From assembly GCF_006345805.1 (NCBI RefSeq), contig NC_043002.1:104904001-104968000 (forward strand): a stretch of DNA of 64,000 bases, given 5' to 3'. How positions within the stretch are numbered: the first letter of the stretch is position 1; every line of letters starts with the position of its first letter. The stretch is from Octopus sinensis. Lineage: Eukaryota. This document shows positions 6,983 through 63,837 of the stretch, in pieces. Below the pieces are notes generated by a model. The model was not told the origin of the DNA. It worked only from the letters and a program-made list of their open reading frames with translations, and searched no databases. The translations under genes were made by a program, and so were the position numbers.

Positions 6983-9736
6983 CAGGCATTGGCTAACTAT
7001 GGCGCGCGTGCCATGCATGACACATGGTCCAATTTACAATGTCACGCACGCCTCTTGGTAAAAGATAAACGTAAATTTTTGTTTATAAATATAATTCAAC
7101 AAGCGCCATCATAATAATTAAATTACATCGTTACATGTCTTTTTTTATGATCCATCTATTCTAACCTAAACTATCAGAAGTTAGCTGTATTTGGTAGCAT
7201 TACATTTCCTTAAACATATATTACTACTGAACACAAATAATTTTGGCGACACCAAATTATAAATGTTAGCACAATTAAGTCATTTGTAAACTGGCGCTGA
7301 ATGTATTTATACGTACTTTATTACTTAAGCCAGCAGCTAGACACGCAAACGCCTATTGTTTTAATCTGTTGTATCTTTAGCAGTGCAGATCATGATATGT
7401 TAAAATCAGTTAACTACCTTACAGTGGCCAATCTCAAAAAAGACATCCTTAAAAATGGGCTCCTACTGTCATCTATAAGTAGACTCTTTTAAAATTATTA
7501 TCTTATTCTGAGGCCAGTTTTATATTAAATAGGAAAAAATCCTTAGTGAGAAGGGTTTTCAAAGACAAGCAAACATAAAATGTCAAAAGTTATACATATT
7601 TTCTTTGGTTTGAATGTCTCCTTTGTGACTGTTTTTTTACTGTTTATTCTTACCAATTATTTTAATATAATTATTTTTATTATTACGGAAATTTATTCAC
7701 TAAATTTATTTCCTTATTTCACTTTTTTACATTTTTTCTTTTAATCTCATTATTTTTATTTAGTTATTTTTATTTCTATTTGTAGAATCTGGTTTAAGGG
7801 TTTATATACCTGTTAATATTAATTATCAATATATAGTGGCCGAAGATGAATAACAAAAGACAAAAACTTGACGGTCGTTAATTTCAAGATTTCTGGAGAA
7901 CTGATTATGGATTTCTACAACAAAATGATGGCGCTGTGTGTATATTCTGTCGTGAATACTTCGTATGTCGTACAAGTGTACAAACGACACTATCAAAATA
8001 GACACCTGACTACATTTAAAAACTCTGATGAGAAAACTGAAACCATCAAAAGATTTATTTCTAGTTACAAAAAATGCCTTTCTGTTTTTGTTCAAATGCT
8101 TGAAACCAAAAGTAAAGCCAACTAATGTAGTTACACATTTGCTCACTTTTACACTTTTACAGACGCAGAATTTATCTAAAATGCTTTTCTGGGAAGTGAT
8201 AACATTGATTTACCAAACGCTGAAACAATAGTCTCGAATTAAAGAAATACCAGCTTCTGCAAGATCAGTTAAGGGACGTATAACTGATACGGTTGAAAAC
8301 AACAATAAAACAAAAAGTTGGATTACAAAAGGCTGCTGCATTCAGTGACGCTATCAATGAAAATACTGATGTGAATGACATAGCGTGCCAAGCAATTTTG
8401 GTAAGATACTGTGAGAATGATCGTATTTATGAAGAATTATGTTATATGATTCCTCTTACCAATATAACTACGGGACAAGACATTCTGACTGCATTTGTAA
8501 ATTAACTTGAATATGAAGCCATTAATATAAATAAAATATTTTGTATGACTAATGATTGTACACGTGTAATGGTTCGAAAGGAAAAAAGGGTTTGTTAAGC
8601 TTCTTGGAAATCATATTGGACGCAATGTAATGAGTTTTCATTGCATCAGGAAGATTTAGTTGTAACACTTTCTTCACAAAGCTATGTATCTGTCATGGAG
8701 ACTCTTGTTAAAATAGTTAACTTCTTATTCCTTGCATCCACTGACTCACAGACAATTTAAGTCCCTTCTGCAAGAATTGGACAGCGAATGTGCAGACCGC
8801 CCGCTACACAGTAATGGCTGTTGGCTTCGACAGGATAATTTTTTGAACAGATTTGTATCATACTTCGTTGAAATTATATATTTTTTGGCATAGTATACTT
8901 AGCAACACTTACAAATGCTTTCCAAACGTAGAAGCTTATTCTAATTGATGTAATGTTAATAATACCGAACTTCAAAAATATAATGCAACGTTACTAGAAG
9001 AATTTTCCAACCGAAATAAGGATTTCGAAACTTACGTTCCTATATTTTCTTTTCTTGGCAAACCCGACTTGATTGATTTGATAACGAATCCATTTGATCG
9101 ATCACTATTTGAGTGGATGCCCGTCGGTATTTTTGAAATGGAAATGGTTGAAGTAACAACTTCAGAATTGGGGAAAACAAAAGAAGCTTCTTGTAGAAGT
9201 CTGTTGCCATTTTCAATTGCTGTATGTCGTTGGCTGAAAGATTCAATTCTTTGAAGAAAATCTCACATGCTCTACTTTCAGCCTTTGGCTCAACATATAT
9301 ATGGGAGGAAATGTTTTCCCATATGAAATCTGTTTTCAGTCCACAAAGAATTTATCAGACAATTCAACATTCGGAAGATTGCGTGAAGCTAAAAGTCACA
9401 AATTATGCAACTGATATTGAGAAATTAGGCAAAAATGTACAGGGACTATGTTCCCATTAATTTACAGAAATTTAATGTAACTGTTGTTAATAGCTTGTTT
9501 ATAATTTTGTTCTGTTGTTTATAATGTGTAATACTTTTTAAAATTAATTATTGAAATAAAACTATATTTGTTTCCATTCAATTTGAATTATTAAAGAATT
9601 AATAAACTAGATTTCTGTTATAGCGAATTTCAAAAGCATAAATTCTACTAATAAAAGTACCAATATGAAGTTGGCACGCGCAATGCTTTTGGGAGCTAGG
9701 TTTGGCACTCCATTTGCAAAAGGTTGCTGACGCCTG
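6983..9736 (+). mobile_element. Full-length decayed hAT DNA transposon (Buster/SPIN/Charlie-like)
   Basis: Imperfect ~16-bp TIRs: CAGGCATTGGCTAACT at 6983 and AGGTTGCTGACGCCTG ending 9736. The 8-bp TSD has a central TA: GTCTAGGA (6975-6982) and GGCTAGGA (9737-9744). An internal transposase remnant is present. Confidence 0.9.
7836..9460 (+). pseudogene. hAT transposase pseudogene (GTF2IRD2/SPIN-like), many stops and frameshifts
   Basis: Motifs FSDAINENTDVNDIACQAILVRY (cf. FSLALDESTD..D.AQL.IFVR), TTGQDI, VMSFHCI, HSNGCWL (cf. H..VRWLS) and C-terminal LSAFGSTYIWEEMFSHMK (cf. FGSTY.CE..FS.MK). Confidence 0.9.
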
Positions 9737-14757: not shown

Positions 14758-14823
<66 letters not shown>

Positions 14824-14826
<3 letters not shown>

Positions 14827-15163
14827 AATTAAGGACTGAACACGAAAAGGTGGACAGTCAACATGCTAGATATAGACGTCAAATCGCCATTCTCCACACA
14901 GATTTTGTTCTCAAATAAAAATAAAATTCAGCACGACCTAAAGCAATGGATGAGACAAAGAAAAATACTAAATGGAATAATTACCTACGTACTGCAGTTT
15001 CAGCTATTAATATCACAAGGATATCTGTAACTTCATCAGCGTAGTCTGTTATGAGCATAATATGCTGTACTAGATGAAAAACGGTACCGGAGTCCCGCAT
15101 GCAAAAAGTACAACCTATTACGTTCGGATGTATCTTTCGAATGCCTCTACTTTTGGCGCGCTG
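14824..15163 (-). mobile_element. HHR-bearing non-autonomous element flanked by (TA)n on both sides
   Basis: Homologous to the 23581-24084 unit (ACCAATTAAGGACTG...GTCAAATCGCCATTCTCCAC; CTACTTTTGGCGCG). (TA)n lies at 14762-14823 and 15167-15225. Confidence 0.85.
14985..15044 (-). ncRNA. Type I hammerhead ribozyme, intact core
   Basis: CUACG-CUGAUGA-AGUUA ca GAUAUC cuugu GAUAUU aa UAGCU-GAA-ACUGCAGU-A-CGUAG. Stem I is CUACG/CGUAG, stem II is AGUUA/UAGCU, stem III is palindromic and the cleavage triplet is GUA (predicted cut between 14990 and 14989). Confidence 0.88.
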
Positions 15164-15174
15164 ATAATATATAT

Positions 15175-15230
<56 letters not shown>

Positions 15231-15954
15231 TGCAGTTTGTAAATAGCTGTTTTAAAAATATTACTTTAGAGCTTAACTGAATATTTACGCTTTTATAACA
15301 ATAAAAATCTTTTAGATGGAGATAAATATTGAATTTGAAAGAAAGGAGCACTGGTTAGTCATGGAAAGAACGTTTCTCGAGTGATGAATACACTCACCTG
15401 TTGTGTCGGTAACTTTCGATGGAATGGCACCGCATAAAATACTGCACGAAGGAGGTTCTAAATTCCCTGGCATGATAAATGTCATGGAATATATTCAGAT
15501 TGTCTTTAAGCATCCATATGTGTTTATGTGTGTTCGTGTCTGCGAGTGTATGTTTGTATAATGTGTCTATGTGTGTGTGTGTATGCATGTACAAAGAATC
15601 CGGAAATAATACACTTTACAGGGACATCAACACCCAACCAGAAGCGAATTCGCCAGACCAAAGAGAATGCATTAAAAAATTAATACTTTACAAAGACAAA
15701 TTTAATAAATATGACGAAAGAAAACACGGGGCAAAACAACAAAAATGTCATCCAAAAAAGCTTTACCACTGGAATAAAATACGGCACCCATTTGCAATTG
15801 TAATAAAATTTGATTAAACAAACCTTTCTACAATTTAGTCGTTTGTGTAATGCACCTAACATTTTTCAAACAATATATGTGTCATAAATAGCATTATTTC
15901 GTTTTTGGATTTGGTTTGCAAGATTCTTTATATGAGTTCGTGTGTTGAAGCATA

Positions 15955-16154
15955 TTCTGTTGTGTCTGGGGAGAGTCATTTTCTTTTTGTGCCTTATAAT
16001 GTAACACACTCACCGGTAAAATTTACACTTATTTCTTATTTTTATTTTTATTTTTATTTTTATGAAAATAAGAAATAAGTGGAAATTTTACCGGTGAGTG
16101 TGTTACATAATAAGGCAGAAAAAGAAAATTATTCTCTCTCCAGACACAACAGAA
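15955..16154. repeat. Fold-back (~90-bp arms) of a dispersed repeat; third copy at ~23425-23548
   Basis: TTCTGTTGTGTCTGGGGAGAGTCATT...CACCGGTAAAATTT...TTATTTCTTATTTT and its reverse complement at 16065-16154. Confidence 0.85.
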
Positions 16155-17750
16155 AAAATAGCATTTGTATACTAAAACTGGTAACTATATTAGCAATGGG
16201 GGCTTTCACGAGGACAGAAATTACGACAAGGGTTTAGATTACTAAAGATTGACACATTCCAAGCATTATAAACAGCTCCCTGCTCTAAATTACATCTAGT
16301 TTATCCCGGACAAAAACTTCTTTTGAACGAGATTTCAACACACATAAAATCTGAGTTTTTAAGCAGTAGTGACAGCCAGAGAACTGCAGCAATATCGTTG
16401 CAACTAGAGCTGTTTACATTCTAAACAGCACATACCAAAACCCACCCTAACCCAGCAACAAACACACTAGCCCAGACGTGAATTTCCTCTCCTCACATCA
16501 ACGCCTGTTTACCTCTAAAACTTGGCAATAATTTTCTTTCTTTTCTCAAAGTATCTACTTATCATTACAGTAAACTTGCACATCAATCAAATAAGCTACA
16601 TCTTCAGTAACGACAAACTATAAATAAAAAGAAATTGGAATGAATTTCACCGAGAAATAGAATCAAACTTTCCATAATTCAGCAACATCACAATCACCAT
16701 CATAAAGCGTTGCGGTGCGCAGAGAGAGGGAAATAATTATAGACAAATCTACAAATATATCTCACAAGGCGAAATAAAGAGTTAAAACACGGCAACAAAC
16801 CAGAAATAAGCTCATAAAACCCAGAGATAACCTCAAAAGTGATACACCAAAACGGCTCACAACTAAAGTAAAATTCAGGATCAAACGACCAAACAAGGAA
16901 GTGATAAAAATAACCATAAAAATAGAAAATTGGTAAACACTTGTAAACAAAAATAAATCAAAACACGAATATGAAACAAACCATTTTGAAGAGTTAACCA
17001 GAACAAGTCACGTTATATCCCGTTGCAGCTCGAACAATCTCAACATATACGCTCACATTGCGATGCACAACAAGCCTCAATAAAATATTTCTTTAAAACT
17101 TTCCACCAAAACACTTGTAACGAAAGAAGAGGGAGAGAGAGAGAGAGAGAAAAAGAGGGGAGATAACGAGAAGGTGGAGAGGGAGCGAAGGAGAGAGAGA
17201 GAGAGAACAAACAAAAATGCTGACCGTAGCCATAAGGCAATGTTTCATACCCATAAGATATGCAAATAGAAATATGAGAGTTTAAAATCACAAGGGTTCA
17301 AGTCTGACGAAATCCGTGTTGAATATTTAAAACAGTGTTTCAGAAATTTAATGAACTCCTGAACACCAATGACATCTAGTTGTCATACTTATATTGATTT
17401 TATATTTTAGCACAAGGCCTGCAAGTTCGGTAAAATTAGTAAATTGATTGCATCAGCTCCAATGCTCAACCGGTATATAATTTATCGACCTCAAAATAAT
17501 AAAAAGCGAATTCGACATGAGCGCAATTTGAGCTCAGAACATAAAGACTGACCAGTCGCACTAATATAAAAAACTTGGGTTTCGAAGAGTTGAGCTAAAA
17601 CAACAAAAATAAAGTTTAAATCTGAAGTAAAATAATCCAGTCTTGACCCAATCCTATGCTTGACCAAAATACTTCTAAAAGTTCTGATCCTTGCCATTAA
17701 TATATGAAATATCCACGTTTTAACTCTTAACACTGATTTAGAACACTCGA

Positions 17751-18117
17751 TGCACACCATCGGTTACGACGACGAGGGTTCCAGTTGATCTCATTAATGG
17801 AACAGCGTGTTCGGGTAAATAACATGCAAGTGACTGAGCACTCCACAGACACGTGTACCCTTAACGTAGTTCTCGGGGAGATTCAGTGTGACAAGTCTAG
17901 CCCTTTGAAATATAGGTACAACAGAAAGAGGTACAAAGAGTGAGAGAAAGTTGTCGTAAAAGAGTACAGCAGGGTTCGGCACCATACTCTGCCGGATCCT
18001 CGTGGAGCTTTAGGTGTTTTCGCTCAATAAATACTCACAACGCTCGATCTGGGCATCGAAACCGCAATCTTATGACAGCGAGTCTGCTGCCCTAACCACT
18101 GGGCCATTGCACCTCCG
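17751..18117 (-). mobile_element. tRNA-derived SINE (family C), tail variant 1
   Basis: Minus head GGAGGTGCAATGGCCCAGTGGTTAGGGCAGCAGACTCG...GGTTTCGATGCCC (A and B boxes). The first ~190 nt are shared with 42704-43010. Confidence 0.85.
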
Positions 18118-19988
18118 CTTTAGACCACTATATCATGTATGGGTGCTGTAAATGTTGTACGCATTCTGCATACAACAGCCTATGTTTGTCTTCCTGCCTG
18201 CAAGAATGTGTATATGCGCACGTGTGAGCGTGGATATGGTTGGGCGTAACTTTCAATTGTATTTGAGGTTTTCTAGTATAGCTGATAAGAAAGGAGACAT
18301 ATATTTCACTCCTTATTTTAAGCTTAATTAAAATACATTTCTGCCGTCCCACAAAATAGGAATATTGACTCATTCACACGTAACAGCATAATGCCATTTT
18401 GCCACTAGTTTGCAGACACTGTTTTACAAATACAAACCTTGATCATCATCAAAATCTTTAAAGCAACACCGACCGAAGTTATATTCCCATTTGTTACTAA
18501 CAACTCCAGAGAAAGTTGAAGATAAGAAACGCATACATAAATGTAAGCTCATCTCTCTCTAACACATATATACTCGGTTAAGTTCTTGGTGTGTGTGTGA
18601 GAGAGAGAGTGTATATGCGTGTGTGCGTGTGTGCATGCGTGTGTATGTGTGTGTGTGCATGTGTGTGTGCATGTGTGTGTGCATGTGTGTGTGCATGTGT
18701 GTGTGGGTGTGTGCGTGGGTGTGTGTGTGTGTGTGTGTATGTCAACTTCCATGGTCTTAGATCTTCTAAGGTGTCTATTTATCTGCTCCGCGCTCCGAAT
18801 ATCTTCGCGTCTATTCTCAATAAACATCAAAGAGTGAAGAATGACAGAATGGACATCAGTGCATTATACATGGAGTACATGCACGACGAAGATGAAATTA
18901 TGAAAATAAAAGAGCAGATGTTTATAAGAAGAAAACAGTTTGTGGTTGCCGCGAGGATAGAAACCCCGATGTCTCTCCCTGCTCAACAATAACTTACACA
19001 TACTCATATACAACAGACAAAATTCTTCAACATAATTTCAATACTCTCACTCTCACACCCAAAGAAACTAGGAAGGAACAGGATAGTGGGGAGAACGGAA
19101 TATGACCAAATATTCTGTTCTACATAAATTTCGACAAAGAAGACGTCGGTGTGAAACAGCTTAGTATGGTCATCCACAAGCTGGAGTCACCGCATGGCGA
19201 GGAGGACCCATATGAGCTTCATGTTTCGTCTTCGAAATGATTGCATGGGTGCAATGCAACCGTTTAAATAAGGCCCGACTTGGGGCTTATAGCACGTAAA
19301 TATACTACTATTTTTACTGCATTCACCAGCCTTAACTTGTTTATGTATGACAAATTGCTCTTCTTCTCACACGCATTGAAACGGACTGGACCAAGACGTT
19401 ACGGTCACCGCTTAAATGATGCGTGTGCGTGTGTTTGAGTGCGTGTTTTCAAGGAGATACGTATACACCTAGAGAATGCTAGATCCACTTGAACATCAAT
19501 GTAAAGTATAAATAAACACATAGATTGAAGATACATCGATATCGAGAAACACACATACATTAACAGACACACACACACACACATGCACACACATACGCAA
19601 TCAGGCGCACGTATATGAACACGCAATCAACGGAAGGAAGCAAAAGTCGAAAAAGAAAACACTTTCTAGCAAATATATCCACGTACCTACACGCATGCGT
19701 ACATCCACATATATGTACACACAATTCTGCACACACATGCACGTGTCCACATTAACACACACGCTACACATGCACTCAAATTAGAATTGGAAAGTCAAAC
19801 ACAAGTTAAAAGCCACGCACAGTATATAACCATCAGCCTCTGTGTGTGTGTATGCATATATATATATATACGATATACATAGGTATGTATATCTATAAAT
19901 ATATATATGTGTGTGTAGGTATTTATGTATCTATATATGTATATATATATATACATATATACATACACATAGCCTTGTATATTCATAA

Positions 19989-20019
<31 letters not shown>

Positions 20020-20053
20020 CGAATGTATCTGTGTATGTAGGTATGTATGTACG

Positions 20054-20080
<27 letters not shown>

Positions 20081-20095
<15 letters not shown>

Positions 20096-20132
20096 CACGA
20101 ACAAACATTTATATGTGATTGTGTGCGTGTAT

Positions 20133-20177
<45 letters not shown>

Positions 20178-20214
20178 CACGAACAAACATTTATATGTGA
20201 TTGTGTGCGTGTAT

Positions 20215-20263
<49 letters not shown>

Positions 20264-20300
20264 CACGAACAAACATTTATATGTGATTGTGTGCGTGTAT

Positions 20301-20335
<35 letters not shown>
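20081..20335. repeat. Three-unit compound minisatellite (~80-90 bp units with variable (TA)n)
   Basis: ACATATACATATATACACGAACAAACATTTATATGTGATTGTGTGCGTGTATAGGTATATA... repeated three times. Confidence 0.9.
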
Positions 20336-20342
<7 letters not shown>

Positions 20343-20801
20343 CGCATATAAATGCATACACGCGCAGAGGCGCGCGCGCGTACGATAGAATTTAATTTCT
20401 TGCGGGATTTCGAGTTATTGATTTTTATTCGTTTAGCCTAATTAATTTGGTTGGTTGGAGGAAATATTTTTAGACGTAACAGATTGTTCGTTTGCACTTA
20501 AAGGAAATAGACGGATGCTTAGCTTTTAGTTAATTAATATAAAAACAGTTATAATACCAGCAGAGATTCTAATTTGATCGCTTGAAAATCAACGTTTTAA
20601 GAACATCACATATTGCCCGTATGTTAATTAAGTCGAGGGCAAAGCTGTCGAAATCCTGGCTTTCTTTTATTCAAAACATGTCATACTGATGTTATATCCA
20701 CATAACTATGTAATCTCAAAATGTAAAGAATAAAAGTGGGAGTACATGACATCACATACATTGATAGATAGGTAAGGAGGTAAAGTGGTGTATATATATA
20801 T

Positions 20802-20843
<42 letters not shown>

Positions 20844-21012
20844 TTCTTACCAACCTACCTATATAGAATATTTAGGCGGCGAGTTGCGAGAAAGGTTAGA
20901 ACTCAAGGCCAAATACTTAGCGGTATTCCGACTGGCCCCCTCCGGAGGAAGTTCGGGCCTTGTGCCTAGAGTAGAAAAGTATATATGATATATATATATC
21001 ATAAATACTTTT

Positions 21013-21057
<45 letters not shown>

Positions 21058-21252
21058 TATATACTTTTTTCACGAAAAAAAAACAAAAGATGAAGACGGG
21101 GGATGTAGGAAACAAAGAGATGTATTAGTATAACGCTCTGGAATTGAAAACAAAACCTACGCTCTTCCACAGAAAGGAACACAGAACGAAACAAGGAGAG
21201 AAAAAATGCGTGTAGTGGATCTATCATGGCGATTATATATATATATATACAT

Positions 21253-21950
21253 ACACGAACGTCTCGCAGATAATACAAAACCCTAGAGATGTTGCAGCCA
21301 TGCAGCAGGTGCTGGACGCAATTTACAGAAGGGCTGAGGACAATAATATGCAGCTTAATGCTTGAAAATTCCAGGCCCTACGCTACTAGCACCCGAAATT
21401 GGACAGGAAACATACAGGGTACATTGACCAAACGGAGATTACAAGTGTAGACGACCGGCTAGATCCTGAGAACCTTGAGAACCAGAGAGAAGGATACACG
21501 ATGGTCATCTGAAGGACATTCATCCTTAGACACATGGACTACTGTCCCCAACTATGGTCACCCCTCAGTGTAAAATTAACAGCGGACCTTTAAGGAATTC
21601 AGTGAAGCTACACAAAGAGGAACGTCTCGTTGCAACAGCTCAGCTACTGGAAAAGGCTGAAACAGCTAAGACTCTACCCCTTGGAGCGAAGGCGAGCGAG
21701 ATATGCAGTAATATACATCTGGAAGAGCATGGAAGAGAATGTACCAAATTTTGTCATTTAAAGCTGCACAAATGCGAGAACGGGTCGCCACTACACAGTG
21801 CCAAAACTCCCAACACTGCCAACGTGTTTCAGGACCAATTACTGCAATAGCCTCGGTTTCAAGGGGCCACAGTTTTTTTAATTCGCTCAAAGAGCCTGAT
21901 GGACCTACGCGAAGTGGATGTAAGTGTTTTCATGGCAAAACCACCAATGA
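21253..21950 (+). pseudogene. CR1-clade LINE ORF2 (RT C-terminal) remnant
   Basis: Translates VSQIIQNPRDVAAMQQVLDAIYRRAEDNNMQLNA*KFQ, HMDYCPQLWSP, LSYWKRLKQLRLYPLERRRARYAVIYIWK and NSLGFKGPQFFNSL, all typical of CR1-group ORF2 ends. Confidence 0.85.
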
Positions 21951-22566
21951 GATGGCAGTTTCGTTACCACGCCGAGGAAAATGCTTATCAGCATCTCATT
22001 CAGCTTTACGTTCTGTGTTCAATTTCCGTCGAAGTCTGCTTTGCTTTTCGTCATTTTGCCTTTGCGCCAAAACTTGGAAACAATATTGTTTGCACTGCCG
22101 AAAATTAAGGCTGACATGTTTGAGTGAACGTGTCTAGTGACAGTCCAAAATACTTCAGGATCATTACGTTTAATCTGTTAAGTGTTAGAATGGGCAGGAG
22201 TCGTTTATGTGTTGTCAAGTGGGTGAATACTTGTCATTTGTAAATTTGAACGAGGGCATAACATCTTCTTCTCATCTACATTCGTACGTTAGAGTCATAC
22301 AAGAAAAAGTCACGAGTGTACACAGAGTTTAAGTTATTAGTTGCTTAAATCCAACACACCAAGTGACAGAATGATTATGTGTTTCAGTAGATGTTGCTAA
22401 ATATTTTAACTTTGTTAAATATATTAAATTCGAAGCTAATTCAGTCTTGGTTTGTATGAATATAGCTAACAACTTTAGCATGTATATATATATTTTTTAG
22501 CATATATATATATATATATTTAGCATATATATATATATATTTTAGCATATATATTATATATATAAT

Positions 22567-22600
<34 letters not shown>

Positions 22601-22765
22601 AATATATATATATTTAGCATATATATATATATATATTTAGCATATATATATATATATTATATATATATATATAATAATATATATTATATATATATATATA
22701 TTTAGCATATATATATATATTTTTTTTTTCCTCTGTCTTCCCTTCTCGGTTCTTTCCTTCTCCTT

Positions 22766-22800
22766 GTTTCCGACGAAGAGCTCCACTCGAAACGTTAAAC
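22766..22800 (+). ncRNA. Minimal variant hammerhead motif in a short (TA)n-flanked element (~22720-22898)
   Basis: GUUU-CCGACGA-A-GAG cucca CUC-GAA-ACGU-U-AAAC. Stem I is GUUU/AAAC, the core has U4C plus an extra A, stem III is the ACGU palindrome and the triplet is GUU. Confidence 0.7.
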
Positions 22801-22897
22801 CCTCCTTCCCTTCTTTCCTGACCGTCAAATAATACTTTAATTGTTCCACGTCCTCGCGTTGCTGTGTTTTTTTCTGTGTTTTCTTGTTTGGATTAAC

Positions 22898-22939
<42 letters not shown>

Positions 22940-23580
22940 GTATAATTAATATTCAGCAGAAGTAAAGGAGTGACTCAAGGTCCGGAGTTTCAAACGTTGG
23001 CACTTTATTGAGCGTTGAGTGCCAACTCACCGAACATTCCTACCTTGAGTCACTGTAGTACTTACGCTAAGCATTAATAAAAAATATTCAATTTTGTGTT
23101 TGCACCAATATACTATATGAATACGTTCATACATACATATATACGTGCATGATATATAAAGGACAAATAAATCTACATTCAATCTTTTCTCACCTACACA
23201 CATACATAGAAAATACACAAACACGGAATGCAAGCCCATGAGTGTACAGGATTCATACATACAGATGCACACACACATACACATATATATATACATACAT
23301 ATGCATACATACATACACACATACATACGTACACGCATGCATGCATAGGTACACACACACACACTGACCCACACACATGCGCACAAACAAACTAAAAGGA
23401 ACGCAGTGTAAATAACGGACAGAGTCAAGACTATTGAAAAGGTTGCAAGACGCAACGGAAATTTTATGAAAATAAAAATAGGAAATAAGTGGAAAATTTA
23501 CCGGTGAGTGTGTCACAAAAAGAAATGACTCTCCCCAGACACAACAGTATGTATATAAATATATATATATATATATATTT

Positions 23581-24385
23581 ACCAATTAAGGACTGCACAC
23601 GAAAAGTGGACAGTCAACATGCTAGATATAAACGTCAAATCGCCATTCTCCACAAAAAGTTTATGTTCTCAGATCAAACTCAACAAAACCAAAGCAATAA
23701 ACAAGTGAAAAATATACGAAATAAATATTTACCCATGTACTAAATTTAGTTTCAGCTGTTATTTTCCGCAAGGAAAAGTGCAGCATCATCAGCATGGTCC
23801 CATATAAAATGTAATTTGCTGGACTAAATGCCAACACGACACCAAAGTATCGCGTGCATGGAGTCCGGCCTATTACATTTGAAATATATATTTCAAATGC
23901 CACTACTTTTGGCGCGATGAGACCCGAGAAAACTAGCCTGCAGCTAATAGTTAGCAGCAGTTAATTTATCGGTTAGAGAACAAATATTTATAAAATTAAA
24001 TTTAGGGTAAAAATTGATATTTATCAATTAGAACCGTGGTCTAGCATATTAAAAAAGAATCCGAAGATTAAAATATTTATATATACCAATTAAGGACTGC
24101 ACACGAAAAGTGGACAGTCAACATGCTAGATATAGACGTCAAATCGCCATTCTCCACAAAAAGTTTATGTTCTCAGATCAAACTCAACAAAACCAAGTAA
24201 TAAACAAGTGAAAATATACGAAATAAATATTTAACCATGTACTAAATTTAGTTTCAGCTGTTATTTTCGTGTGCAGTCCTTAATTGGTATATATATAATA
24301 TTTTAATCTTCGGATTCATTTTTAATATGCTAGACCACTGGTTCTAATTGATAAATATCAATTTTTACCCTAAATTTAATTTTAT
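23581..24385 (-). mobile_element. HHR-bearing element with a 504-bp unit, partial tandem copy and inverted terminal segment (PLE pLTR-like architecture)
   Basis: Units start at 23581 and 24085. The second unit is truncated at ~24268 and joined via TTTTC microhomology to an inverted copy (24264-24385) of ~23989-24109. Both ends abut (TA)n. Confidence 0.88.
23733..23797 (-). ncRNA. Type I hammerhead ribozyme, intact core
   Basis: CCAUG-CUGAUGA-uGCUG cac UUUUCC uugc GGAAAA uaa CAGCu-GAA-ACUAAAUUUAGU-A-CAUGG. Stem III is a 12-nt palindrome, the triplet is GUA, and there is a U.U pair at the base of stem II. Confidence 0.85.
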
Positions 24386-24389
24386 ATAT

Positions 24390-24498
<109 letters not shown>

Positions 24499-25369
24499 TT
24501 TATTATATATATATATATTTATATATATATATATATATTTATATATATTTATATATATATATATGTATGTATGTATATGTGTCTTCGGGCGTACGTGTCG
24601 GTGGTGAGTGTGTGTGAGAGTGAATGTGTGTGTATGTGTGCGTGGATGTAAGTGTATTTGTGTGTGTGTGTATATATATATATATACAAACACAAATACA
24701 CGTATCTACAGCAAGTTGGGTGAAAAGTTAGCAACGTTTTGGACCATGAAGAATTTGTACCGCATTTTTGCAGGTTTGAATGTTTTTAAGTATTTTTTTG
24801 CAATTTTCTAATAATAAGACGTTCCCAAATGCATCAATAAATAAACATTCATATTGTTTTCACTGTTTTTACAATCATCTGAAATGGAACTGTGAATGCG
24901 CGATATTCGAGCAATTTTGCTATTCAACTACAAAACACAACGCAAGGCAGCAAAACCTCTCGCGTTATTAACAAAACGTTTGTTGAAGAAATGAGTGGTC
25001 ATCTCGAAAATGGTTTAAACCATTTATCAATGGAGACCTGAACCTTGAAGTTGGTGAGCGTAATGTATTTGTATACGTAGATATACTTACCTGAACATGG
25101 ATCTATATAAGCATATATCACCGTATATTTATCTGTATGCATGCAAGTATAGGAGTTCTGTATCTGTGTGTATGATTTATACATCACCTGATCCTACAAA
25201 ATAATTTTAGCATCAAAGGAAGTCGAAGATTTAAACGAGATAAATATTTTATTAATAACCTAACCTCCAGTTCCTTCCTATCTTGTGACGTTACTGTTTC
25301 TCGATAACTTAACACGATCCACTTTTAACACCCACCCACACCCACACATACATATACATACACACACAC

Positions 25370-26740: not shown

Positions 26741-26775
26741 ATGCTGAAGAAGACATATCCTCGAAACGTCAAAAC
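26741..26775 (+). ncRNA. Degenerate minimal hammerhead-like motif
   Basis: CUGAAGA-A-gacauauccuc-GAAACGUC. The core and ACGU palindrome are present, but stems I and II have decayed. Confidence 0.45.
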
Positions 26776-26873
26776 CCTTTCCTTTTTATCAAGCGTCAAA
26801 CTAAGATATCCCATGTGCTGGTCCTTTTGTTGTTGTGTTATTGTTATTGTCAATGACCGATTATTCGATTTAA

Positions 26874-29615: not shown

Positions 29616-29663
29616 GCGACAGATACCAATATTTCGTGGTTCCGTTCCGCTCATCAGTGTCAC
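29616..29663 (-). ncRNA. Type I hammerhead ribozyme, near intact
   Basis: GUGACA-CUGAUGA-GcGG aacggaa CCaC-GAA-AUAUUGGUAU-C-UGUCGC. Stem I has 6 bp, stem II has one mismatch, stem III is near-palindromic and the triplet is AUC. Confidence 0.78.
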
Positions 29664-41799: not shown

Positions 41800-42702
41800 T
41801 CATTTCGTCCTAAACAACCTTGTTTTATTTTAAAAGAACACAAACCAATTTTTTAATAATCCAACTTTGCGACTTATTTGTCCTTCTAGCTCGCAAAAAT
41901 ATTCTTGATAAATATACTCATTCTTTACTTAAAAAATTAAAACTTAATTTATGGGCGAATTCGTTCCAAGTGGGTGAATAGTTTAATTCTTTTAATAACA
42001 AGATCTCAACTAAGTTTACTCAGTTCGACATTTCTACTTATTATTCTTCTATTAATCCAATTGTTTTTAACAAAACATTCTGGTTTGCGCACAAACAAAG
42101 CCGGTCACACACGGGATAAAATTAATGTGGTTTTGGCTGCCAGAAAATCAATCATTAAATTAGAAAATATGTTCTGGGTTCGTAAAGATAGGCCTGATTG
42201 TTTTGACATTACGATGGGAAGTTCAGACTCCGCACAAATTTCTGATTTCGTCGGTATCTATATCTTTCTGAGATGATTGACCAATTCCCAACCATCAAAG
42301 GAAGTTTATATCGTGATGATTGTTTACATTATCTTCAAAATATTTCCAACCAAAAATTACAAAGGGTTAAAAATAGATTAGTTAAATTTTGGGGAAACAT
42401 GAGCTTAAACATTATTTTCGATGAAGATATAACTAAAACCAACATTTTAGATATTAGCCTTAACTTATACAATGATTCATATTTCCCATGCCATAATTTA
42501 AAATATAAGAGCGTTTTTAGTAATCACCCGAGGACTATAACAAGAAACTTAGCTAAAAATATCTACTTAGACTTTCATGAGTATCTGCTAATGTTGATAT
42601 ATTTAATGATAAAGCTGAATCTTCTTAACTCTGCTTTACTTAAAGCAGGCTATAAAGAAAAACTTACGTGTCTTAACATTAATTCTGCTTCTATTACTCA
42701 AT
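41800..42702 (+). pseudogene. Penelope-like element reverse transcriptase remnant
   Basis: Collinear PLE RT motifs: FILKEHKP..NNPTLRLICPS, LNLWANS, FTQFDISTYYSSI, WVRKDRPDCFDITMGSSDSAQISDFVGIYI, SLYRDDCL, NILDISLNL, SNHPRTI and ALLKAGY. The sequence is frameshifted and truncated by a SINE. Confidence 0.88.
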
Positions 42703-46829: not shown

Positions 46830-47483
46830 AAACGTTAAACACGTTACTAGTTGATGTAGCTATGTTTAATAGCTCTCTAAATGTTTTGAGACTCAGAAAA
46901 GAGAATATAATTTTCCTCTGTGTCTGTGCATCAAGATTATATTGTCAACTCTAAATTTTGCATCCAGGAAAAAAATATTGGTGTTGAGTGCAGTCGAGAG
47001 AACCGAACATATTTTATTGGTATTTTTTTTTTAAACCACGAACGATTAAAGGCAATTTTGTTACTTCGTTGAATTTGAATGGAGAACAAAAAAGAATGAT
47101 GAAACTAAATAGCAAAGCCTTTTTAACCAAACATTAGTTTGAAGGTCACTTGTGTACGTCGTGTACAAACGTGTAAATTAACTGTTATTTATGTTTGTCT
47201 TTTATAAATTGTTTCATCTTAATGTTCGTACAACTTAACCGCTCTCACTATTCGTGTAAAGGCGCTAACGAACCCGTAACCAGCTACCACAAGAGAATGA
47301 CTATAAGCAAACACATCTGAGTCTAAGAGACTTGAAAAACAAAAAAGTAAATAGATAACTTAAATTGAATTTAAAGAAGAATATGAGTGGATACGTTTCT
47401 AAACTCATATAATATATATATTATATAGATATATATATATAATATATGTATAATACGAGAAAGAAGCAACAAGAATGGATTAG

Positions 47484-47574
47484 TTTTAGTACAATTGTTT
47501 CATACAAAGACAGGCTTTATTACAAGTTGCAAAAATTGCAGCAGATAAAAGTGTCCCGTACTCATCAGCTAAAA
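47484..47574 (-). ncRNA. Type I hammerhead ribozyme with long stem II
   Basis: UUUUAG-CUGAUGA-GUACGGGAC...GUCUUUGUAU-GAA-ACAAUUGU-A-CUAAAA. Confidence 0.85.
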
Positions 47575-48339
47575 TACATATGAGTTCTCTAGACATCTTA
47601 GTGGGTGAGGTTATACTCATGAAATATTGGAGATAATTCCATTAAAGGCAGATATGGTTGTAAACAGTTTTCCAAAGTTCCTTAATGATGATGCTCAGTC
47701 TTATCACAGATTTTAAAAAACTTATTAGTTCGAAGAGAAGATGAATTAATCCATAGTGTAGATTTAAATTTCCAGAGATATGAGGAGGATGATGCACAGA
47801 CTTATCACAGGTTTTTAAAAACTTATTAGCTTCACAGAAAGGTGAATTATCCGTAGTGAAGATTTAAATTTCCGCGGTAGAGGAGGAACTTCATACTCAC
47901 AGGCGATGTATTTAACCATTATTAATCCACAATCATTTCATGCTATATGATAAGGTAATTTGCCATACTACTGCTCTCCGTGCAAAACTGATATGTTAAG
48001 ATTTCTAAAGGCTGAAGGAAATTATTTGTGGGGCGAAAGAAAAGAAAAAGAAAAAAGAAAGAGAAAAGAAAAGGCAAAAAAAAAAAAAAAATAAAAGGAG
48101 AAAGAAAGAAAGAGAGAGCAAAGAAGAAAAAGAACAAGAAGACAAAGAAGAAAGAAAAAGAAAAAGAAGACAAGAAAAGGAAAAAAAGAAAAAGAAAAAA
48201 AGAAAGAGAAAAAGAGAAGAGAGAACAGAGAAGATAAAAAAAAGAAAAAGAAAAAGAAAAAGAAAAAAAGAAAAAAAGAAAAAGGAAAAGAAAAAAAGAA
48301 AAAAGGGGAAGAGAGAGAAAAGAAAATAACTCATATGTA

Positions 48340-48430
48340 TTTTAGCTGATGAGTACGGGACACTTTTATCTGCTGCAATTTATGCAACTTGTAATAAAGC
48401 CTGTCTTTGTATGAAACAATTGTACTAAAA
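48340..48430 (+). ncRNA. Type I hammerhead ribozyme with long stem II (inverted copy)
   Basis: TTTTAG(48340-45) CTGATGA(48346-52) GTACGGGAC...GTCTTTGTAT GAAA(48413-16) CAATTG TA(48423-24) CTAAAA. Confidence 0.85.
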
Positions 48431-48591
48431 ACTAATCCATTCTTGTTGCTTCTTTCTCGTTTATAATCACCCCACATTACTGTATGGTTAACACCATATA
48501 GTTTTTCTGGTGCATCTAAGTTAAGTACCACATTCAAGTAAATTCATTGGAATTTACTTGAATCTTAATTGCTTTGATGAATATATATATA

Positions 48592-58446: not shown

Positions 58447-60472
58447 GTTTCTTTATTAGCCACACAGGGCTGCACACAGATAGAACAAATTACAAGGTAG
58501 AGCTTTTCTTTTGAAGGTTTAAAAAAATAAAAATAAAAAAAAAAATTTTTTTTTTAAAAATAAATTAATAAATAAATAAATAAAAAAATAAGAAAAAAAT
58601 AAAATAAAATAAAAATAAAATAAAAAAGGGGGGTCGATCAAAAGGGATCGTAAAAGGGAGAAAGAGGACAAAAAAAAAGGGGGGGTTAAAAAAAAAGGGG
58701 GAGGAAAAAAAATTGATCAATAGGGATCGTTATCACAGAAATGTCAATATGAAGTGTAAGGGGGGGACGGTGAGGTTTACCCGTGGAAAGAAAAGCCTAC
58801 GGAAAAGACCACGGTAACCTCGTCAATGAAGTCACATGTTAGATTTCTTTTTTTCTTTTTTTTTGCAAATAAGCAACTCTCTGTATTACTTTTTTACGGT
58901 TCATAGAATCATAGTCAAAGTGGCTTCGTCATTCATACGTGCCATCCTTGCTACATTCACCCATCTTTTTTTAAAACATTCACTAGACAAACTTGCCTCT
59001 CTACTCTCACTTTTTTTCTTCAAGTGATACTTGAAGAAGTTGATGAGAGATTGACCAGAGAAAAGTGTTTGTCTCTAATCCTAATCCTTCAGACCGTCCA
59101 CCAGATACATTCTTTCGCCATAGCCACAAGTATGATAAAAATAGCTCTTTTCCTTCCCGTTTGAAGGAAGGAGGCGTGACGATATTAACGATAGACTCGG
59201 CTGATAAACCGACACGTCCCACACGTGACAGCAGTCGTTCGACATAAGCCCACAGGTGGGAAATTGCTGGACACTGCACGATTGCGTGCAGAGCGGTTTC
59301 GTCGCTCTGCCCGCATCTCGGGCAGGTCGGCCCCGTGTTTCTCGAGCCATGCCTATAGAGCTTATCCCGAACGGGTAGCGCTTCTCGGTAGCACCGCCAG
59401 GCAGGGATCTCTGGAAGTTGTCCATAGGTCCCGGGCCGAAAGTCGTTTGAAACAGGCGGGTCAGGTATTCCTCGTCGACGCCCAGGTTTGCCCCGAGCTC
59501 GTCGTCGTACCTCCCCTCCACTAATCCCCTATAGAATGCTTTGGTTGTGTTGAAGTCACTCAAGGTCGACCCGGACGGCAGAGTTGCTTGAGAGCAACGC
59601 GACACACTCGCGGTGCCATTCGCCCTTCTTCGGCCTCTTTTTGATCCACGACTGTAGTTCGGTCATGGGAACGAGTTGCGGGATGCGTGCCTCACAAACG
59701 GCGACCACACCTGTTCACCGTCGTCTACATAGAGCGGAGATGTCGCAGTCTCAGCGCGTGTCTGCGCATCATCAACCACGGCATGCCCAGCCCTCCTTTT
59801 AACGGGTGTTGACAGCAATGGATCGCCTGACCATCGGGACGCATCCTTTCCACAAGAAGCGGAAGAGATGCGTTCTAGTTTGTGATGGTAGGGTCGGGAC
59901 AAGGTACGACGGTCAAGCGGTAGTAGATGATGGACGCGATGTACGCGTTCACCACCTCCGCCCGACCTTTTAGGGGACAGTTTCCTCTCGGCCCTTGCTG
60001 GGCGAGAGTGACCACCCTACTCGTTATCTCGTTCCAGTTCTTCTCCATTTGGAGGTCCGGACCGAACCAGACCCCGAGCAACTCAACACCGGGCCGTCTG
60101 TCCAGCGTCCCACGACGGAGGTACTGGTGGACGGCATGGGTTTGCTTCTCCAGGTGCCGAGCCGCAAGCCCCACTGATTTTCCCCTCCCGGTTGATTTTT
60201 GCTCCTGTCACCGCTTCGTAGTCTTTCAGTGTCTCGCCGACCCGCTCGATGTGCTCGTTGGCTTGACACTATGACGGTGACGTCGGTCCGCGTATGCAGA
60301 CACACGCTCGTCCCGCATCCTAATTCTCGCGGGATGCCCCTCAGAGTCGCCAGCTTCCGCAGTAGTGGCTCAAGAGTCAATACGTTCTAGAAGCGCCGAG
60401 AGGGGCATCCCTGACGGACCGACGTGCAATGTCGAAGGGTCCTCGATAGATGTCCATTTACGCGAATTACCG
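58447..60472 (-). mobile_element. 5'-truncated Tx1/L1-clade LINE (copy 1) embedded in (GATA)n
   Basis: Minus strand gives SVRQGCPLSALL, LEPLLRKL, frameshifted (A)YAD(D)VTVIV, LLGVWFGPDLQMEKNW, LKGRAEVVNAYIASIIYYRL and CPRCGQSDET..HAIVQC zinc finger. The 3' end is GGCTAATAAAGAAA, with GATA repeats on both sides. Confidence 0.9.
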
Positions 60473-63011: not shown

Positions 63012-63837
63012 TTCAATACGCATGCTGGGGGCTTGCAGTCGCCAATACCAATGGCCCTTTTTAAATTGTTACTAGATAATAAGAGTCAATGATATCTTCA
63101 CAAATTATTTTATCGTAAATTATTTTCTCTCGTGAATTATTTGCTCCGTATCGAAATCATTTTCTCACTGGTGGCTGCCATGATTTCGGCGCAAAATGAA
63201 TAATTTGCAGCGCAGACTTCAGCACGACGGGTTGTGAGACTTTATCATTGGTAACGCGTGCTGAGGAAGCTAAGACTATTTTTGCCAGTACGGAAACCGG
63301 TCCACTTGAGTCCAAATACTTGAATGTACGTTGTTGGTAGATTGTCTTAGGCCGTTTGCCTTCAGACGGTTGATTTCTGTAGTTATTATCAGTGTATTTT
63401 GGCCTGTTAAGTAAGAGTGTTGACTGCTATTTCCAGCAGGTAGACATACTTAGTATGCCCTTTAATTAATTTTATACATATATATATATATATAATATAT
63501 ATATATATACATACACACACACAGCAGATATATATGCATGTCAGTTTATGGGTGTGTGCATGTTGATATATTCCGAGTGTTCTTATAAGCGTATACCCAT
63601 GCGTACAGGTACGTGATTGTTGGCTGTTCTTGAAAGAGCAGCCAAACTTGTGTGAGCGCAAATAGTCATAAAAACAAGCGAAGTTACGTTCAACAAAATA
63701 GTCATATAATAATATACGCGCCAACCAGAACTGCAAGCTCTGTTGGAATGCGCCTTTTATATATATATTCCAGCGCTAAGGATCATGACGCGCTGCAACA
63801 TGTATTCTCTATCTTCCTATCTCTCTATCTTTCTTTC

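Follow-up and report, generated by a model that had tools for sequence, protein, structure and literature searches.

Two related hammerheads in one octopus locus

The window analysed here, 64,000 nucleotides of Octopus sinensis contig NC_043002.1, contains two related hammerhead-bearing elements, copies A and B (Table 1), which raise the question of whether RNA structure was under selection as their family spread. A preliminary description had answered this from the two copies, reading compensatory covariation between them as direct evidence of selection. All segments that it quoted were found in the window, on the minus strand, which it had left unstated, and the two elements are 74% identical across an alignment of ~340 nt. 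Each copy carries one complete hammerhead with the type I core (C3 U4 G5 A6 N7 G8 A9, G12 A13 A14, A15.1-U16.1 and H17, with stem I open), and CUGAUGA, GAAA and GUA are identical in both, as described. Judged from their sequence, both minus-strand hammerheads are real. Rfam gave 0 matches in the window at the gathering threshold, and none of its hammerhead models matched copy A or B at E<=5.

The canonical G10.1-C11.1 pair is absent from the window, being A-U in A and U.U in B. The latter is described as an active variant (PMC3088659, PMC7229834), and helix II of axolotl HHR_Amex2 is reported to have a U.U mismatch at its base (PMC7229834). Both copies can equally be read with a 4-bp stem that begins at a G-C pair and leaves one extra base on either side.

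Comparison of A with B bears out the covariation only in part. Stem I pairs in the register given and differs by two double changes. The base of stem II shows one double change, one single change (U.G vs C-G) and one break, located at pair 10.1-11.1. The inner helix has two double changes, a break (G.U vs C U) and one G deleted in A, and the pairing proposed for it (GAUAUC/GAUAUU and UUUUCC/GGAAAA) lies one base off the homologous register. Because of this deletion and the shifted register, what had been taken for a shared CUUG(U/C)G apex forms a loop of 5 nt in A but of 4 nt in B. In stem III one double change stands; the difference is mainly a 4-nt indel, and both versions are perfect palindromes. 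Together, these helices hold 6 doubles, 1 single and 2 breaks, and a further double lies in the stem I extension, which had been overlooked. Since two copies give a single branch, read partly in the wrong register, they are not direct evidence of selection.

Table 1. Features of the two elements, in window coordinates.
Feature	Position	Strand	Remark
Copy A, subfamily A: 5'-truncated repeat monomer, one hammerhead	14825..15168	-	sequence comparison
(TA)n microsatellite, copy A 3' end	14762..14824	.	
Near-invariant 3' block of copy A	14825..14897	-	stops at commonest insertion end
Stem I extension A, 3' side	14977..14984	-	GUAA internal loop and 4-bp helix strand
U1.7 of copy A	14983	-	within GUAA internal loop
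Type I hammerhead fold A	14985..15044	-	10.1-11.1 = A-U; stem III = 8-nt palindrome
Predicted cleavage A, after GUA	between 14990 and 14989	-	inferred from consensus
Stem I extension A, 5' side	15045..15052	-	4-bp strand and 4-nt loop
(TA)n microsatellite, copy A truncated 5' end	15167..15225	.	
Copy B, subfamily B: ~1.36 tandem units	23582..24268	-	period 502-504
Stem I extension B, 3' side	23725..23732	-	U1.7 at 23731
Type I hammerhead fold B	23733..23797	-	10.1-11.1 = U.U; stem III = 12-nt palindrome
Predicted cleavage B	between 23738 and 23737	-	inferred
Stem I extension B, 5' side	23798..23805	-	
Whole unit, predicted cut site to cut site, non-coding	23738..24239	-	502 nt; predicted fold z=-5.9
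Second hammerhead, 3' half only	24235..24268	-	severed by inversion; no CUGAUGA
Inverted terminal piece of copy B element	24264..24383	+	5-nt overlap at join; (TA)n end
(TA)n microsatellite, outer end of inverted piece	24383..24578	.	

A dispersed family of tandem units ending in (TA)n

The window elements represent two subfamilies of a non-coding, hammerhead-bearing tandem repeat with a unit of ~505 nt. Searching the genome with a family pattern returned 543 matches, against 0 for the reversed control, and the 3' block occurs in 1886 exact copies, beside which a further 1052 3' blocks were counted. We identified 36 distinct units of 500-513 nt arranged cut site to cut site in tandem; arrays of 2-5 consecutive units, each with a complete type I hammerhead, occur in subfamilies A and B', and the longest reach 4-5 units. 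Copy A is 98-100% identical to 40 scored genome copies, and the full subfamily A unit, seen in tandem arrays, measures ~506 nt. Neither window copy contains an ORF of at least 120 aa. Among 40 copies chosen without regard to the core, 36 have it intact. A comparison of core with flank (0/12 vs 89/200 variable columns) was set aside as circular because the copies had been selected by core patterns, and the constancy of the 3' block (2/50 columns) is partly circular for the same reason.

We inspected 100 of the 1886 3' blocks, the first 100 on contig C1: 75 lead to a (TA)n end, 21 pass into another unit and 4 have a different kind of end. Across 174 Mb of a single contig, 57 dispersed insertions share two fixed 3' ends and have variable 5' ends. 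Both orientations are present in 22 of the 57; the inversions face outward (head-to-head), and none is convergent. Frequent switches, as inversions and short internal repeats, were also seen in the insertions. Tandem and head-to-head arrays ending in (TA)n are the anatomy of a non-LTR retrozyme.

It is scarcely credible that the repeat is instead a DNA-level minisatellite with a fossil ribozyme, spread by unequal crossing-over or gene conversion. Tandem arrays do occur, as that account expects, and array-specific variants, which bear on whether each array arose from a single circle, are mixed, with one or two present in all units in 4 of 9 arrays and in part of the units in 2 of 9. Several arrays lack variants common to all their own units, which also suits it. 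Dispersed insertions whose 3' end falls at one of two fixed points while the 5' end varies, together with outward inversions, are, however, the pattern of retrotransposition, and young subfamilies (98-99% identity) retain the hammerhead fold.

Paired positions change together across the family

We analysed compensation on a tree. Of 176 units, 55 were set aside because their flank was truncated or inverted, their core was altered or they were unrelated; the first tree lost 2 more of 121 rows, and 11 of 151 rows (indels or missing flank) were dropped to give the final 140 copies. Damaged copies are over-represented among the rows left out, a bias that bears on private but not on shared counts. 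Over 30 pairs there are 18 cases in which one shared branch carries a change in each partner of a pair, and all 18 double changes are complementary, whereas two null models of 2000 rounds each gave means of 0.66 (max 4) and 0.83 (max 6). The double changes fall in all five helices. Pairing was kept and broken in 37 and 12 shared changes but in 57 and 72 private ones (p=2e-4). The structural alignment was drawn by the analyst, so these counts lean toward the proposed structure.

Among 16 hand-picked representatives, 94.2% of cells pair and both sides change in 11 of 24 pairs, vs 0-2 when the pairing is slid. Comparative support for the three hammerhead helices is strong in aggregate, but the covariation check proposed in the preliminary description gave a weak signal when pairs were taken singly: in a home-made, R-scape-like, tree-aware G-test E<0.05 is reached by 4 of the 33 proposed pairs, and none is significant in an all-against-all test, where unpaired flank columns score equally high. 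Most doubles arose once, on long branches. CpG decay was considered as the origin of the stem I double change and rejected, as the tree gives U-A -> C-G, a CpG gain.

A mutational account would attribute most of the compensations to template switching, at DNA replication or in reverse transcription, that mends inverted repeats with no selection for a functioning ribozyme, in a repeat that spreads whether or not it cleaves. Compensatory changes in the stems of RNAs have been reported to arise from such switching (PMC8794818), and the switches in these insertions (inversions, short internal repeats) and the freedom of pair 10.1-11.1 suit this account, as does the fact that the excess of G.U over A.C is not significant (9:2 shared, 33:25 private; p=0.18). 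We nevertheless regard it as very unlikely. Stem I with its extension, where partners stand 55-75 nt apart across a three-way junction, accounts for seven of the 18 doubles; G.U states fixed in whole subfamilies at three positions would not survive DNA repeat repair; unpaired bases in the stem I and stem II internal loops are invariant (see below); and changes confined to single copies break pairs more often than they keep them.

At the level of the family, the claim that the RNA fold was under selection during spread holds, all 18 doubles being complementary. Covarying hammerhead families in Penelope-like elements have already been described, and fold selection has been stated qualitatively for Penelope-type hammerheads (PMC4209133). 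The tree-aware count confirms this expected selection on a genomic hammerhead family during its spread.

A relaxed stem II junction and a candidate tertiary contact

Pair 10.1-11.1 takes six states in the family (G-C, G.U, A-U, U.U, U.C and A.C), and G-C is found in 25 of 140 copies. This differs from the Penelope pseudo-LTR hammerheads of PMC4209133, in which G10.1-C11.1 is highly conserved; loop 1 is poorly defined there, whereas stem I here has a defined internal loop and an extension. Such hammerhead families are probably under-counted, because Rfam misses these motifs and a published screen (PMC3088659) rejected mispairs at 10.1-11.1.

Two features whose bases the search patterns did not fix are unpaired and invariant: U1.7 (119 of 119 A-D copies) and an AA in the stem II internal loop. 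The stem II apex, previously proposed as a tertiary contact, is disfavoured because it varies along shared branches and is not the same in the sister family; U1.7 with the internal-loop AA is the better candidate, as suggested by position and conservation only. According to PMC11875169, full-length Schistosoma and sTRSV hammerheads make a U1.7-A(L2) Hoogsteen contact and likewise have an unpaired U seven bases 3' of the cut site and an invariant A beside the 3' strand of lower stem II, although the A here sits in an internal loop and not in a terminal tetraloop. Tentatively, the internal loop (CA/AA) of the extended stem II, rather than its terminal loop, may dock on U1.7 and thereby free 10.1-11.1 to drift. 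If so, the genome would hold a dated natural series of active core-junction variants in successively amplified subfamilies, copied from RNA circles with priming on both (TA)n strands. The subfamily series offers natural variants for probing both relaxation of the stem II junction and the internal loop as a tertiary contact.

Cleavage activity could be low, because G-C occupies 10.1-11.1 in so few copies and the predicted minimum-energy fold of copy A misplaces stem III. Isolated hammerheads of 71-76 nt fold no better than shuffles (z -1.5 and -1.2). Among predicted frog retrozymes, 8 of 9 did not cut in vitro (bioRxiv 10.64898/2026.07.22.740005).

Whole units and their probable route of spread

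Run on 7 whole units, RNAalifold predicted stems I, II, inner II and III without being given them, and in its prediction stem I brings the unit's ends together. Folded as circles, 6 of 6 units beat their shuffles (z -2.8 to -9.9, 12 shuffles each), with 58-66% of bases predicted to pair; the window unit was scored against 100 shuffles (z -5.9).

Because paired bases change together across subfamilies, the family has likely spread via self-cleaved RNA copied by Penelope-type enzymes, and we consider the repeat most probably a non-LTR retrozyme. Multimeric transcripts would cut themselves after GUA into units, which would close into circles; a Penelope-like reverse transcriptase-endonuclease would then copy these into (TA)n microsatellites. 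Stem I would keep the termini of a cut unit side by side so that they can be ligated, and in tandem transcripts the palindrome of stem III may let cutting proceed as a double hammerhead. New subfamilies would be founded only by RNAs that fold and cut properly, so that pairing persists along shared branches but erodes in individual genomic copies. Since 46 of 100 copies continue past the cut site, the template that is copied would be a circle or a multimer left uncut. In none of 100 copies does the 5' breakpoint fall 3 nt or less from the cut site (nearest +4, -6 and -6, approximate), so run-off from linear cut RNA was rejected as the usual template.

In genomic sequence and predicted RNA folds, the family resembles metazoan non-LTR retrozymes (coral, mussel and axolotl, PMC7229834; vertebrates, bioRxiv 10.64898/2026.07.22.740005). 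Shared traits are non-coding tandem repeats of low GC content that bear a single type I hammerhead in each unit and lack an LTR, many dispersed monomers and multimers, a highly self-paired predicted unit and Penelope-like elements in the same genome. The unit here (500-535 nt) exceeds the 150-450 bp of PMC7229834 but lies inside the preprint's 51-972 bp range, and stem II, unlike theirs, continues through an internal loop into a second helix. PMC7229834 says nothing of (TA)n ends or head-to-head inversions in its main text.

Retrozymes are reported to derive from pseudo-LTRs (same preprint), and the family shares traits of Penelope hammerheads (an additional base following A9, a short stem I, a long stem II and a palindromic stem III; PMC4209133). 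Accordingly, 5' truncation of an autonomous Penelope-like element might have left the units behind as orphaned pseudo-LTRs, and selection would then have acted on the full element's ribozyme rather than on an independent retrozyme. We hold this to be highly improbable: sufficiently extended copies run into another unit or a breakpoint and not into coding sequence, arrays of 4-5 units occur, no coding frame is attached, unlike in the hammerheads of PMC4209133, and no RT + GIY-YIG frame between pseudo-LTRs was found in or adjoining the copies examined. Moreover, none of 42 GIY-YIG loci, from 5029 first-look candidates, shows a copy of the unit or a Penelope-like element sharing the unit's 3' end; of the 1886 3' blocks, 100 were inspected. 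Weak matches in this search (best E 7.5e-4) sit at the ends of other repeats beside a Penelope-like element.

The repeat also resembles the Neptune, Nematis and Naiad Penelope-like elements (PMC8557442), with partial tandems, an inverted 5'-truncated copy beside the insertion, a longer tail at one end, and microsatellite and (TA)n targets. It differs in encoding no protein and in the tail difference between its two 3' ends (~100 nt vs 30-40 bp), and Naiads are there described as lacking canonical hammerheads. Fixed (TA)n ends and outward-facing inversions provide a testable link from retrozymes to Penelope-type insertion. Intact RT + GIY-YIG frames (775-781 aa, CX4CxxC-type linker), a possible source of the enzyme, occur in this genome, and the 3' ends of those elements also run into (TA)n.

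Two window elements from young subfamilies of one repeat

Copies A and B, the two window elements at 14825–15168 and 23582–24268 on the minus strand, each carry one complete hammerhead and are from separate young subfamilies of a ~505-nt tandem repeat (subfamilies A–D, with a sister family E), interpreted as a non-LTR retrozyme in a 2.72-Gb animal genome rich in microsatellites. Among 40 scored copies each, identity was 98–100% in subfamily A and 95–100% in subfamily B. Cut-to-cut units (36 distinct) span 500–513 nt, longer than the extent first assigned to the element in a preliminary description, and are arranged head to tail. Copy A is a unit truncated at its 5′ end and flanked on both sides by (TA)n tracts; copy B comprises 1.36 units plus an inverted end piece of 120 nt. 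Genome-wide, we counted 1886 instances of a 29-nt 3′ block, and hammerhead pattern searches returned 543, 189 and 25 matches, with 0 in reversed controls.

Family E, discovered via loose contig ends (1052 end matches, 280 hammerhead matches), looks older and more decayed. Its hammerhead has U.U at 10.1–11.1, the pair at the foot of stem II, followed by a C-G pair, and a CA/AA loop as in the main family, with an inner helix of 13 bp. One array with its flanks is present twice (L010/L227 on contig C8730 and L011 on contig C13), probably as an assembly duplicate, and many single-base indels within arrays look like sequencing error.

Features discussed in the text, in window coordinates unless a locus (L) is named
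Feature	Position	Strand	Remark
Hammerhead A	14985–15044	−	Quoted helices present
Hammerhead B	23733–23797	−	Quoted helices present
Family E	L238:1660–2125; L258–L287		Unit ~535 nt
Intact PLE frames	L318:1721–4063; L321:2032–4374		781 aa
Intact PLE frame	L319:2745–5069		775 aa
Distant hammerhead	L321:75–140; L321:6010–6075		A-U at 10.1–11.1, U at 1.7
Second hammerhead-like family	47455–47586	−	Core 47484–47574
Second hammerhead-like family	48328–48460	+	Core 48340–48430
CUGANGA...GAAA, short stem II	8025–8057; 26744–26781; 63261–63312	+	Possibly minimal hammerheads
CUGANGA...GAAA, short stem II	29618–29657	−	Possibly minimal hammerhead
Broken reverse-transcriptase fragment	~41880–42700	+	Presumably Penelope-like
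GC-richer frames	59007–59662; 60024–60386	−	Resemble non-LTR retrotransposon

Support for selection on the hammerhead fold

The preliminary description claimed compensatory covariation between A and B in every helix. The elements align at 74% identity over ~340 nt, and the inner helix proved to have been compared one base out of register. In homologous register, the double changes number two in stem I, one in lower stem II, two in the inner helix and one in stem III. Lower stem II also has one single change and one break (10.1–11.1, A-U in A versus U.U in B), the inner helix one break and a G missing from A, and stem III a 4-nt indel. Neither motif was detected by Rfam.

For 140 natural copies (115 A–D and 25 E) we drew a structural alignment anchored on the motif, leaving out 11 of 151 copies (55 of 176 earlier), and mapped changes by parsimony on a tree of 233 flank columns only. 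Across 30 scored pairs, 10.1–11.1 excluded, we counted 18 cases in which the two partners of a pair changed together on a shared branch, and 18/18 were complementary (stem I, 4; its extension, 3; lower stem II, 5; inner helix, 4; stem III, 2). With each branch's substitutions reassigned to random columns, the mean was 0.66 and the maximum 4 (2000 rounds); with stem columns re-partnered, they were 0.83 and 6. Pairing was preserved or regained in 37 shared changes and lost in 12, versus 57 and 72 for single-copy changes (p = 2e-4); without family E the counts were 18/3 and 17/23. In 16 hand-picked representatives, 94.2% of pairs formed, with both-side changes in 11 of 24 pairs versus 0–2 when slid. 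Given seven whole units, RNAalifold predicted stems I, II, inner II and III, but not the stem I extension, and found compensation also in flank helices.

The proposed R-scape-style check, made with a home-made G-test, gave E<0.05 for 4 of 33 proposed pairs and 0.05–0.08 for 4 more; all-against-all, no pair passed and an unpaired flank pair scored highest. The excess of G.U over A.C was not significant. The few G-test passes, the G.U result and our own drawing of the alignment weigh against the complementary doubles; on balance, selection on the fold is supported in aggregate and thinly pair by pair.

A relaxed stem II junction and a candidate tertiary contact

Position 10.1–11.1 was U.U in 47 of the 140 copies, A-U in 46, G-C in 25, G.U in 13, U.C in 7 and A.C in 2, whereas excerpts of PMC4209133 describe G10.1–C11.1 as conserved in Penelope-element hammerheads. 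The same excerpts report an extra base after A9, a long helix II, a palindromic helix III and families rich in compensatory changes. Here an extra base follows A9 in 43/140 copies, and the common stem III types are self-complementary over their entire length.

Stem I contains a 4x4 internal loop, then a 4-bp helix. U1.7, unpaired in that loop, is present in 140/140 copies, although it is pattern-fixed for most E copies and parser-favoured; it also occurs in 119/119 A–D copies parsed without requiring it and in 4/4 E copies found via their 3′ end. The stem II internal loop has two A's on its 3′ side, kept in 140/140 and 139/140 copies. The stem II apex, initially put forward as a tertiary contact, varies on shared branches and differs in family E, which argues against that role. 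Because U1.7 pairs with an A of loop 2 in full-length hammerheads (recounted from another paper in PMC11875169), we propose the internal-loop A as its partner. The relaxed junction and this putative contact merit bench testing.

Insertion anatomy and proposed mechanism

On contig C1 we examined the first 100 3′ blocks, picked independently of the ribozyme; they represent 57 insertions, of which 22 contain both orientations, every one outward-pointing. At their 3′ ends, 44 blocks run into (TA)n at one fixed point and 31 do so ~100 nt further on; 21 continue into the next unit and 4 end otherwise. Copies extend upstream beyond the predicted cut site in 46 cases, with no 5′ breakpoint within 3 nt of it among the 100. 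The whole ribozyme is spanned by 40 copies and its core is intact in 36; the other four trace to three single-insertion events. Directly after the first 3′ end, the unit's own sequence includes a TATATA run that may base-pair with nicked (TA)n at the target.

A likely route is transcription as a multimer, predicted self-cleavage, perhaps as a double hammerhead, and ligation of unit ends held together by stem I. A Penelope-like enzyme would then reverse transcribe the product, using both strands of a nicked (TA)n target as primers, which would yield tandem runs and outward-facing inversions. Candidate enzymes occur in the genome as intact Penelope-like element (PLE) frames with RT and GIY-YIG, 3′ ends in (TA)n and a cysteine linker like the Neptune/Nematis type. 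They are probably recent, because several copies share equal scores and 781-aa frames. No CUGANGA hammerhead lies in the 3′ regions of the three tabulated frames, and 0/42 GIY-YIG loci examined share the unit's end. At L321, which has an additional 479-aa frame upstream, the intact PLE sits between two direct repeats, each at least 630 bp long, that contain the distant hammerhead, whose stem II internal loop ends in AA; a 40-nt stretch downstream bears weak likeness to the unit (E 0.39).

Matching insertion anatomy appears in excerpts of PMC8557442, and those of PMC7229834 define non-LTR retrozymes and report an active U.U variant. The preprint bioRxiv 10.64898/2026.07.22.740005 links them to pseudo-LTRs, with units of 51–972 bp and cleavage in 1/9 tested. 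Among the listed open-access papers on octopus retrozymes and cephalopod hammerheads, none describes this family, which supplementary species lists may include. Judged from sequence, the hammerhead is real and under selection, and the element is probably a new family within a known class.

Other mobile-element traces

The broken reverse-transcriptase fragment is one we take to be Penelope-like from its motifs; a 152-aa piece gave no RT match in Pfam. The GC-richer frames resemble, by eye, a decayed non-LTR retrotransposon, and Pfam returned nothing significant for the single frame searched. The short-stem-II matches are possibly hammerheads of PLE ends, with ~5.6 matches expected by chance. 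At least two more hammerhead families occur at examined loci (L318:5530–5625, L059, L022, L049 and L323), and in one of them the foot of a long stem II again shows a mismatched or additional base. The second hammerhead-like family, unrelated to the first, forms an outward-facing inverted pair with 99% identity; its long stem II begins with G.U, its stem III is palindromic and both arms end near (TA)n.
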